A stretch of DNA of 50,477 nt from a virus (lineage: Duplodnaviria; Heunggongvirae; Uroviricota; Caudoviricetes): the IMG/VR virus record IMGVR_UViG_2645727867_000002; one strand, given 5' to 3'. Shown piece by piece: positions 42,001 through 45,000 of this stretch (its first letter is position 1; each line of letters begins with the position of its first letter). The position numbers were made by a program.

Positions 42001-45000
42001 TTCTCACTGGGGGCCAGCATGATTCTGGGTGGTGTGGCCCAGATGCTGGCCCCGAAGGCAAAGACGCCGGAGTACAAAAGCACGGATAACGGCAGACAGA
42101 ACACGTATTTTTCGTCACTGGACAACATGATTGCTCAGGGTAATCCGATGCCGGTGCCTTACGGTGAAATGCTGGTTGGTTCACGACGGATATCCCAGGA
42201 CATCAGCACCCGTGATGAGGGCGGTGACGGGAAAGTGGTGGTTATCGGGCGGGGATGAAAATAAAAAAAATCCCGCAGTGCTCTGTAGCTGCGGGAAGAG
42301 ATACGAAGATTATTTTTCATTATTCTGGCAGATGAACTGTAACGCAGCGTGATTATGAGCACTACAGTCAGTGTGCGGAAATGTGAATAAACTCAGAATT
42401 TTTATTCACGGGAAGGGAGGGGCCGGATATCGGTGGCAGAGGACAGAAGGCATCATGCCGGGTTCAGGGGATAAAAAAATCCCGCAGTACTCCGTGCTGC
42501 GGGAAGAGAACGATGTTGACTAACCTGTTGGCGTTTTATTTTTATTGACCCGCAGAAACTGTAACCTGCCGGAATGCACTCTGCCACGGAGAATGACTGA
42601 AAATGTGAAGAAAATCAGAGTTTTTATTTATCCCGGGCTTTCGTCTCTGGCGACAGAGTGGCGTCAGTAATGTCCGTGATACTGAGGGGGGAATTAAAAA
42701 ATCTCCCGTAATACACCTGGATATTGACGGGAGAAACGAATAGTCACCTTAAGGAGTAGTTTTGATTATTGCCTGTAATCAGCGGGCGAATTGTAACGTA
42801 TGGTGATTATGAGTGCCACAGGTAATTTGCAGAAATGTGAATAAATTCAGAATTTTTATTCACAGGAAGGGGCTGCGGGATATCGGTGGCAGAGGACAGA
42901 AAATATCAGGCCGGGTTTAAGGGATAAAAAAATCCCGCAGAGTCAGCGGAGCTGCGGGAGAGAACGATGAAGATTAACGTTATGGAGTTATTTTTCAGGC
43001 ATCAAAAAAGTAACGCAGCGTCATTATTGCGGCTACAGGCAATTTGCAAAAATGTGAAGAATTTCAGAAATTTTATTCCGTCATGACACAGGCACCCTCC
43101 GGGGTGCCTGTTGTTTTTGGGCATAAACAGATTCAGACATCAGACATCAGACAGGAGAGGGGGACAGAGTGGGTAAAGGGGGCGGCAAGGGGCACACACC
43201 GCGTGAGGCGAAGGACAATCTCAAATCCACGCAGATGATGAGCGTGATTGATGCCATCGGTGAGGGACCGGTGGAAGGCCCGGTGAAGGGACTGCAGAGT
43301 ATTCTGGTGAACAAAACCCCGCTGACGGACACGGACGGTAATCCCGTGATACACGGTGTGACCGCCGTCTGGCGTGCCGGGGAGCAGGAGCAGACACCGC
43401 CGGAAGGCTTTGAGTCCTCCGGGGCGGAAACCGCACTGGGTGTGGAGGTGACGAAGGCAAAGCCGGTGACGCGCACCATCACGTCAGCGAACATTGACCG
43501 TCTGCGGGTCACCTTCGGGGTGCAGTCACTGGTGGAGACCACCTCAAAGGGTGACCGTAATCCCTCTTCTGTCCGCCTGCTGATTCAGCTTGAGCGTAAC
43601 GGTAACTGGGTGACGGAGAAGGATGTCACCATTAACGGCAAGACCACCTCGCAGTACCTGACGTCGGTGATTCTGAATAATCTCCCTGAGCGCCCCTTTA
43701 ACATCCGGATGGTCAGGGTGACGGCGGACAGTACCACGGACCAGCTGCAGAACAGAACGCTGTGGTCGTCATACACCGAAATCATCGATGTGAAACAGTG
43801 CTACCCGAACACGGCCATTGTGGGGCTGCAGGTGGATGCGGAGCAGTTCGGTGGCCAGCAGATGGTGGTGAACTACCATATCCGCGGCCGCATCATTCAG
43901 GTGCCGTCAAACTATGACCCGGAAAAACGCACCTACAGCGGTATCTGGGACGGGAGTCTGAAACCGGCATACAGCAATAACCCGGCCTGGTGCCTGTGGG
44001 ACATGCTGACCCACCCGCGCTACGGGATGGGAAAACGCCTGGGGGCCGCGGATGTGGACAAGTGGGCGCTGTATGCCATCGGGCAGTACTGCGACCAGAC
44101 GGTCCCGGATGGTTTCGGGGGCACAGAGCCGCGGATGACCTTTAATGCGTACCTGTCACAGCAGCGTAAGGTGTGGGATGTCCTGGGGGATTTCTGCTCG
44201 GCGATGCGCTGTATGCCGGTATGGAACGGCCAGACGCTGACGTTCGTTCAGGACCGTCCGTCGGATGTGGTGTGGCCGTACACCAACAGCGATGTGGTGG
44301 TGGATGATAACGGCGTGGGGTTCCGCTACAGCTTCAGTGCCCTGAAGGACCGGCACACGGCGGTGGAGGTGAATTACACTGACCCGCAGAACGGCTGGCA
44401 GACCTCCACTGAACTGGTGGAAGACCCGGACGCCATCCTGCGCTACGGGCGCAACCTGCTGAAGATGGACGCGTTCGGCTGTACCAGCCGCGGTCAGGCT
44501 CACCGTGCCGGACTGTGGGTGATAAAGACAGAACTGCTGGAAACGCAGACGGTGGATTTCACGCTCGGGTCTCAGGGGCTGCGGCACACACCCGGTGACA
44601 TCATTGAAATCTGTGATAACGACTATGCCGGGACCCTGACCGGCGGACGCATCCTGTCCATCGATGCCGCCAGCCGCACACTGACGCTGGACCGTGAGGT
44701 GACACTGCCTGAGACAGGTACATCGACGGTGAACCTGATTAACGGCAGCGGTAAGCCGGTGCGCGTGGACATCACTGCACACCCCGCCCCTGACCGGATA
44801 CAGGTCAGCATTCTGCCTGATGGCGTGGCGACATACGGTGTGTGGGGACTCTCCCTGCCGTCACTGCGTCGTCGCCTGTTCCGCTGTGTTTCCATCCGGG
44901 AAAACACGGACGGCACCTTTGCCATCACGGCGGTGCAGCATGTGCCGGAAAAAGAAGCCATTGTGGATAACGGGGCCCGCTTTGAGCCGATGTCCGGCTC

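Follow-up and report, generated by a model that had tools for sequence, protein, structure and literature searches.

The IMG/VR virus record IMGVR_UViG_2645727867_000002 (50,477 nucleotides (nt), analysed over its whole length and hereafter called the window) is a Stx2-converting lambdoid prophage of Escherichia coli O104:H21 strain 94-3024, as indicated by a match of 100% identity to the chromosome of that strain. It carries stx2A and stx2B at 17281-18521 (Pfam RIP and SLT_beta) and adjoins btsS. Between the end of tail gene I (Pfam Lambda_tail_I) at 42258 and the start of J at 43169 there is an I-J spacer of 910 base pairs (bp; 42259-43168) in which the RefSeq annotation of the source genome shows no feature. 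An insertion of about 900 bp had been noticed at this junction when the DNA was first inspected without database searches (hereafter the sequence-only reading), in agreement with the measured length. Phage lambda, which that reading credited with essentially no spacer, has a small one of 60 bp, and this contains no unit of the kind described below. We report here that the 910-bp spacer probably carries four tandem, independently terminated small RNA (sRNA) genes, antisense to the late tail operon and belonging to the family of PasB from enteropathogenic E. coli (EPEC) and EcOnc22-24 from E. coli O157:H7 Sakai.

The spacer consists of four diverged direct repeats of ~210-230 bp each, arranged head-to-tail and all on the minus strand (42259-43168). 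A repeat search recovered them with a core spacing of 222, 232 and 217 bp, and longer repeat families with two to three copies were also found. Consistently, a 28-nt core pattern matched the minus strand at 42379-42406, 42601-42628, 42833-42860 and 43050-43077 and had no match in 100 shuffles. The four repeats of the sequence-only reading are confirmed. An alignment of the four units with two relatives gave a mean column identity of 67%. Tandem Repeats Finder reported no array in the I-J spacer, probably because the units are too diverged for it (copies less than about 70% alike are missed, according to the tool's description). Copies within the window are confined to the I-J junction, and in every spacer checked by position they likewise lie at this junction. 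A mobile repeat, either a miniature inverted-repeat transposable element or a repetitive extragenic palindromic sequence, was rejected, as inverted pairs were only short and at chance level.

Read along the minus strand, each unit comprises an invariant 28-bp element (AAATGTGAA-N5-TCAGA-N2-TTTTATT, also written AATAAAAWYTCTGA-N5-TTCACATTT), about 21 bp, a -10 hexamer position, GCGTTAC, an A/U-rich body and a terminator. GCGTTAC is conserved at the predicted RNA start, and the predicted RNAs of 82-103 nt end in a GC-rich hairpin with a U6-8 tail. The sequence-only reading had described one hairpin motif in every unit and a conserved core containing a 9-bp palindrome; both descriptions were right in part. 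The motif AAAAAAATCCCGCAG...CTGCGGGA occurs in units 1, 2 and 4 only, and the hairpin of unit 3 (42696-42734) has another sequence, TCTCCCGT...ACGGGAGA, with the architecture unchanged. The 28-bp core is indeed invariant, and the palindrome (GTGAATAAA/TTTATTCAC) is limited to units 1 and 3.

A covariance model (R1) was built from 20 sRNAs of single-unit spacers, PasB among them, with the window left out and an 8-bp terminator as its sole structure. Run with filters off over the whole 50-kb window, it matched exactly the four units, all on the minus strand, and nothing else below an expectation value (E) of 0.1. The unit features are as follows.

42264..42345, minus strand: unit 1, predicted sRNA of 82 nt (model R1, 67.1 bits, E 1.5e-10; fold with terminal hairpin).
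42271-42278/42289-42296, minus strand: unit 1 terminator stem, with U-run at 42263-42270 (fold).
42352..42406, minus strand: unit 1 predicted promoter region, with -10 hexamer CATAAT from 42357 to 42352 and 28-bp element at 42379-42406 (PasB promoter alignment, pattern match).
42407..42472, no strand assigned: linker between units 1 and 2, 89% identical to the linker at 42861-42925 (repeat family D3).
42473..42567, minus strand: unit 2, predicted sRNA of 95 nt (model R1, 50.8 bits, E 1.7e-7; fold).
42480-42504, minus strand: unit 2 terminator, with U-run at 42473-42479 (fold).
42574..42628, minus strand: unit 2 upstream region, with 28-bp element at 42601-42628 and aligned -10 position from 42579 to 42574.
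42697..42799, minus strand: unit 3, predicted sRNA of 103 nt (model R1, 20.2 bits, E 0.09, marginal).
42702-42734, minus strand: unit 3 terminator, longer, 13 bp in the fold, UCUCCCGU.../...ACGGGAGA, with U6 tail (fold).
42806..42860, minus strand: unit 3 predicted promoter, with -10 hexamer CATAAT from 42811 to 42806 and element at 42833-42860 (promoter scan match 42819..42790).
42926..43016, minus strand: unit 4, predicted sRNA of 91 nt (model R1, 92.7 bits, E 2.4e-15; terminator scan match).
42933-42959, minus strand: unit 4 terminator, with U-run at 42926-42932 (terminator scan, fold).
43023..43077, minus strand: unit 4 predicted promoter, with -10 hexamer AATAAT from 43028 to 43023 and element at 43050-43077 (promoter scan match 43050..43023).

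Minus-strand folding gave a terminal hairpin followed by U6-8 in all four units. Further supporting the terminators, 97.4% of the helix cells were paired when 63 distinct family sequences were aligned to the model, and seven of the eight pairs showed changes on both sides, a result equalled in none of 500 shuffles. RNAalifold, applied to a MAFFT alignment of 40 sRNAs, returned no consensus structure because two terminator types had been misaligned; alignment to the covariance model solved this problem. Rfam holds no family for these RNAs. Among 94 distinct units, the aligned -10 hexamer was TATAAT, AATAAT, TATCAT, CATAAT, GATAAT or GAAAAT in 83; every one of these hexamers has A as its second and T as its sixth base. 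One J-proximal unit type, found in two-unit arrays (L004, L014, L038 and L048), reads TGGAGGA-AACC-TTGC at the place of the -10; this fits the -24/-12 spacing of sigma-54 promoters and may be a chance likeness.

The units were next linked to validated sRNAs by sequence and position. The detection probe of PasB, AATCCCGCAGTGATCGCGGAGCT, is the terminator motif of the window units. PasB (NC_011601, 1466343 to 1466261, minus strand, 83 nt, EPEC E2348/69) lies in prophage PP6, within the 240 bp that separate tail assembly protein I from J, and is antisense to both of these neighbours. Pearl Mizrahi et al. 2021 (PMC8550237) describe PasB as validated by northern blot and ~100-fold lower in an hfq mutant (log2 fold change -6.8). 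Its partners there in RNA interaction by ligation and sequencing (RIL-seq) are bfpB, bfpI, ftsZ, galE, ler, perB and rplX, and PasB was the second RNA of the chimera in all seven interactions examined, the position that these authors use as their criterion for an sRNA. EcOnc22, EcOnc23 and EcOnc24 of O157:H7 Sakai were crosslinked to Hfq, gave ~85 nt on northern blots and were destabilised without Hfq (Tree et al. 2014, PMC4104026, Table S2). Their peaks lie, respectively, in the J-I spacers of the following three Sakai prophages, antisense to the tail genes.

NC_002695.2 2902691-2902930: J-I spacer of Sp15.
NC_002695.2 2676622-2676861: J-I spacer of Sp14.
NC_002695.2 2166672-2166911: J-I spacer of Sp11.

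The published EcOnc coordinates refer to an older version of the Sakai genome and lie about 122-146 nt below the current RefSeq ones; at AgvB1, the offset measured with Rfam was +137 to +146. With this correction, the EcOnc22 peak (Sp15, the sole peak checked with the model) would fall on the predicted sRNA at 2902836-2902926, and the spacer position and antisense strand of EcOnc22-24 hold with or without the offset. The accessible parts of the two Pas papers give neither a homologue of PasB in enterohaemorrhagic E. coli (EHEC) nor a link to EcOnc22-24; PasB and EcOnc22-24 therefore appear, by sequence and locus, to be one sRNA family under two names. Homology to experimentally confirmed sRNAs that share the locus and the strand thus supports the array of minus-strand regulatory sRNAs suggested by the sequence-only reading, with units 1-3 as predicted sRNA genes. 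Its alternative of anti-sRNAs found no support, the units not being relatives of AgvB/AsxR: an Rfam scan of 41500-44000 at E <= 1 gave no match except a chance small nucleolar RNA, and none to RF02702 or RF02703.

Unit 4 is the closest to the known sRNAs, with 89 of 91 positions identical to the Sakai Sp15 sRNA (EcOnc22 type), an intact putative seed AACUCCAUAACGUUAAUCUUCAU and the pre-terminator stretch AAUCUUCAU. Units 1-3, its paralogues, depart from it in the region where the seed probably lies. In unit 2 this region has diverged to AGUCAACAU where unit 4 reads AAUCUUCAU. Unit 3 has an insertion of ~9 nt in its 5' part, the seed region ACUCCUUAAGGUGACUAUUCGU and a partly kept pre-terminator stretch (CUAUUCGU); its core, -10 and GTTAC are common with the family.

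Within the RNA, conservation is highest in the single-stranded stretch that precedes the terminator (AACUCC...GUUAAUCUUC or AACUCC...GUUAAUCUUCAU). A recent study likewise proposes a seed in the pre-terminator stretch (Zhu, Shabalina and Storz 2026, doi 10.64898/2026.05.13.724894). Four PasB partners (ler, bfpI, ftsZ and galE) were analysed by their longest complements, whole-fragment RNAduplex having given meaningless global duplexes. PasB positions 37-45 have a perfect 9-nt complement in ler and positions 50-57 one of 8 nt; in bfpI, positions 49-58 have a perfect complement of 10 nt, which lies within the chimeric region. For ftsZ and galE the test returned no notable complement to PasB. Two of the four partners thus have perfect complements of 9-10 nt, all in PasB positions 32-58, which is the conserved pre-terminator stretch. 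Since the window units differ exactly in this stretch, the array most likely encodes several sRNAs with differing target ranges; as predicted from the sequences, it would most likely supply sRNAs of differing specificity, not four doses of one sRNA.

Collectively, our results suggest that each unit is a self-contained moron with its own 28-bp element, sigma-70 -10 hexamer, A/U-rich RNA of 82-103 nt and intrinsic terminator, the last of which would form an Hfq-binding module together with the U-tail. By analogy with PasB and EcOnc22, the putative unit promoters would give rise to Hfq-bound sRNAs in the lysogen, where the late operon is silent, and these would pair with host and virulence mRNAs via the single-stranded stretch just upstream of the terminator.

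The number of units varies between prophages. A comparison of unit copy number, which the sequence-only reading had proposed, revealed arrays of one, two, three and four units with differing compositions. A pattern scan of IMG/VR found at least 120 loci; among the matches listed, and with the single-unit reference loci L001 and L002 subtracted, 111 had one unit, four had two, three had three and five had four. In a sample anchored on the I protein, which is unbiased for spacer content, the 76 complete spacers comprised 57 with one unit, eight with two, one with three, two with four and eight bearing sodC. The two- and three-unit arrays are built from unit types other than those of the four-unit array. 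Among 5,426 complete E. coli genomes, 803 matched part of the spacer and 67 carried the whole four-unit array, at 96-100% identity and never annotated, in some genomes at more than one place. Judged by strain names, the array-bearing strains are mostly Shiga toxin-producing E. coli (STEC) from people, cattle and beef; O91:H21 FWSEC0008 and RM7190 are among them. The spacer was matched at 100% identity only by the source strain and its near-duplicate CFSAN002236. A search of 185,579 species-representative genomes returned a single match to the 28-bp element, a 460-bp contig (L123, NZ_FWPT01000051.1) in a marine-bacterium assembly labelled Parendozoicomonas haliclonae, which is probably contamination by an E. 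coli prophage. In essence, then, the element is restricted to prophages of E. coli.

The 2026 survey of Pas genes gives 28,355 bp as the minimum distance between pasB copies, contrasts the Pas genes with tandem duplicates and reports no tandem copies (doi 10.64898/2026.05.13.724894). Of each array, the survey presumably registered the PasB-like unit alone. The family is thus known, and the four-copy array of diverged paralogues appears to be undescribed as far as the searchable literature shows.

The eight sodC-bearing loci (L149, L165, L173, L182, L185, L186, L194 and L198) have an 854-bp I-J spacer with a minus-strand sodC-like gene. In these 8 of 76 spacers, sodC (Cu,Zn superoxide dismutase) stands in place of the sRNA promoter and 28-bp element, and its 3' end keeps a PasB-like body fragment and terminator; the sRNA terminator may therefore serve as the sodC terminator or 3' untranslated region.

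Several observations weigh against an array of four working sRNA genes. The match of unit 3 to the model is only marginal, as its score above indicates, and the folding z-scores of whole units, between -0.7 and -3.1, are modest. In unit 1, a deletion at about 42311 has removed 11 nt from the conserved pre-terminator stretch, just upstream of the remaining AAUCUUCGU. The sequence-only reading suggested promoter prediction upstream of each terminator, and -10 hexamers were found for units 1, 3 and 4; the aligned position in unit 2 reads GTGCAT, which lacks the A at position 2 and is not a recognisable -10, making the unit 2 promoter doubtful. The complement test is weak, with p about 0.04-0.08 per target and two of four targets, and of the five Pas sRNAs only three were assigned a common target motif in PMC8550237, whose accessible motif figure and table show PasA, PasD1 and PasD2 but not PasB. 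The mapping of EcOnc22 leans on an offset measured about 1 Mb away. Expression and Hfq dependence are documented for the relatives PasB and EcOnc22, and for units 1-3 we infer them. Finally, the aligned arrays are 97-100% identical, with 72 of 924 columns variable, mostly through indels and loop changes, and a selection test on individual units was uninformative because the arrays are too alike.

Part of this evidence fits one functional gene with scars, in which unit 4 (the EcOnc22 type) works, units 1-3 decay as passengers, and the array is a by-product of illegitimate or unequal recombination where morons tend to insert. In the source strain unit 2 is without a -10 and unit 1 lacks 11 nt of its seed, and a single unit is the rule in most spacers (57 of the 76 anchored on I). 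The linker after unit 2, moreover, carries a copy of the J start region (GGCGACAGAGTGG, p = 0.004), as a J5'/I3' junction would leave, and is the sole linker with a J-start match. The linker at 42407-42472 does not significantly resemble the 3' end of I or the 5' end of J, and a search of the phage collection with that at 42861-42925 gave nothing informative. An origin of the linkers as remnants of the 3' end of I was rejected, the nucleotide similarity not being significant, and a peptide-level likeness between RDIGGRGQKISGRV and RDEGGDGKVVVIGRG was an unsupported impression. Against decay, none of units 1-3 has lost the invariant 28-bp element, their terminator hairpins are intact and followed by a U-tail, and units 1 and 3 also retain a CATAAT -10. 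The deletion in unit 1 is absent from the seven other four-unit arrays aligned (L035, L072, L077, L078, L102, L134 and L135), a unit-2-type body stands behind a good AATAAT -10 in another array (L137), and 67 genomes maintain the four-unit array, some of them at two or more sites. As a general account, one gene with scars is therefore somewhat unlikely, although it is partly true in the source strain. Judged on sequence, in that strain unit 4 is certainly intact and unit 3 probably so, unit 1 is damaged in its putative seed and unit 2 in its predicted promoter; two of the four array units are most likely compromised there.

Binding sites for a protein had been offered by the sequence-only reading as a second possibility. 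The four 28-bp elements could form a site cluster for a transcription factor such as CRP, with functions beyond the sRNAs. The element is the best conserved part of the unit, next to a -35 region that varies, and this conservation is partly imposed, as the element served as the search pattern. The CRP consensus is TGTGA-N6-TCACA, which the TGTGA-N6-TCAGA of the element matches at 9 of 10 half-site bases. Relative to the start that the -10 predicts, the site is centred at about -44.5; class II sites are centred at -41.5, and a class II CRP-dependent promoter was rejected on this difference of 3 bp. According to PMC8550237, PasB is higher in static overnight lysogeny broth (LB) than in Dulbecco's modified Eagle medium (DMEM), and the CRP-repressed Spot 42 behaves in the opposite way there; these two conditions also differ in many other ways. 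An array that functions as protein-binding sites in its own right is unlikely. The idea may hold for the 28-bp element as a promoter-associated site only, and the element is a probable activator or UP-type site.

About 370 nt of the late transcript have their perfect complement in the units, whose predicted transcription runs head-on against that of the operon, and cis-antisense control of the tail operon therefore has to be weighed. Convergent transcription or RNA duplexes would modulate read-through, processing or stability of the late I-J mRNA, with stronger control where there are more units. A further feature that could speak for such control lies between the array and J.

43088..43118, plus strand: terminator-like hairpin and T-run just upstream of J (terminator scan, alignments, lambda sequence).

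This hairpin occurs once per spacer at any unit number and is also present in lambda, which has no unit (60-bp spacer; L213, about 763-790). On this distribution, it is an ancestral junction element outside the repeat unit. It would stop non-antiterminated transcription ahead of J. The sRNAs themselves lie clear of the I and J coding sequences and of the J ribosome-binding site, unit 4 starting about 150 nt upstream of J, and PasB was recovered on Hfq with trans partners, according to PMC8550237. The I-J site can also hold sodC, and its cargo is therefore exchangeable and not tied to control of the tail genes. A purely cis-antisense role is distinctly unlikely, because the RNAs avoid both coding sequences and the ribosome-binding site and because the site accepts sodC. 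Close to the hairpin, a TCAGACA heptad microsatellite (43133-43153, three copies in the window) lies ~15 bp upstream of the J start codon; its copy number ranges from 2 to 4 among otherwise near-identical arrays (2 in L035, 4 in L078).

A small plus-strand protein gene (MKINV...) duplicated with the unit is hardly credible: an ATG after a GGAG-like sequence does open reading frames of 22-41 amino acids (aa) in PasB, Sakai-type and unit-4 spacers, but about half of the 94 distinct units have ACG, ACA or ATA in place of this ATG, the frame varies from 6 to 43 aa and is shifted by changes in homopolymer length, and units 1-3 have no such frame, so that a conserved small-protein gene was rejected and the sequence-only reading was right that no reading frame is conserved across units.

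The explanation that we favour thus remains an array of PasB/EcOnc22-24-family sRNA genes. More tentatively, the I-J junction may possibly be a cassette site at which PasB-family genes accumulate and shuffle; some STEC prophages would thereby own up to four neighbouring, separately transcribed Hfq sRNAs with different seeds, and a single prophage would rewire several host and virulence regulons together. Prophage sRNAs are a recognised route by which Stx phages influence the physiology of their host and the expression of virulence genes. PasB and EcOnc22-24 have so far been treated as single-copy genes under two unrelated names, and the gene has been multiplied into arrays of diverged paralogues in STEC lineages negative for the locus of enterocyte effacement, for example O104:H21 and O91:H21. 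The ~900 bp left blank by the annotation of this Stx2 prophage hold probable regulatory genes. If the units are expressed and have different targets, their copy number and composition would provide a cheap, typable marker of regulatory differences among STEC, and the array would be a natural experiment in sRNA seed diversification.

Other RNA features of the prophage lie away from the spacer. Matches above the Rfam gathering score comprise IsrK and C4 antisense RNA side by side at 8251-8439, three tRNAs just upstream of stx2A (16939-17187) and STnc100 just downstream of stx2B (18596-18808). A Hok/Gef family toxin gene lies directly downstream of J (about 47054-47194, RefSeq), and a weak covariance-model match at 47262-47327 on the plus strand is probably just the terminator of this gene.

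Among known systems, PasB is alike to the window units in its I-J spacer, its strand relative to the tail genes, the upstream element, the -10 position, the GTTAC start region, the pre-terminator stretch (as kept in unit 4) and the CCCGCAG/CUGCGGG terminator. PasB is a single gene, whereas the window has four paralogues 217-232 bp apart, three of them with seeds unlike that of PasB; EcOnc22-24 differ from the window in being present as one copy per Sakai prophage. The sodC moron shares with the array its place as minus-strand cargo of the I-J junction and differs in that its cargo is protein-coding. AgvB and AsxR (RF02702 and RF02703) are likewise short Hfq-binding sRNAs of lambdoid and Stx prophages at a conserved moron site. 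Their own layout has a variable 5' part and a conserved 3' part, and they are 51-60 nt long, unrelated in sequence and located downstream of PR', whereas the window units lie in the tail operon. Qrr1-5 form a multi-copy sRNA set at separate loci, and OmrA/OmrB and PrrF1/PrrF2 are chromosomal core-genome pairs of neighbouring sRNA paralogues, in which every gene has a promoter and a terminator to itself. Similar to the array, OmrA/B and PrrF1/2 are paralogues common in one part and differing in another; unlike these pairs, the array has up to four units, lies inside a phage structural operon and varies in composition between prophages.

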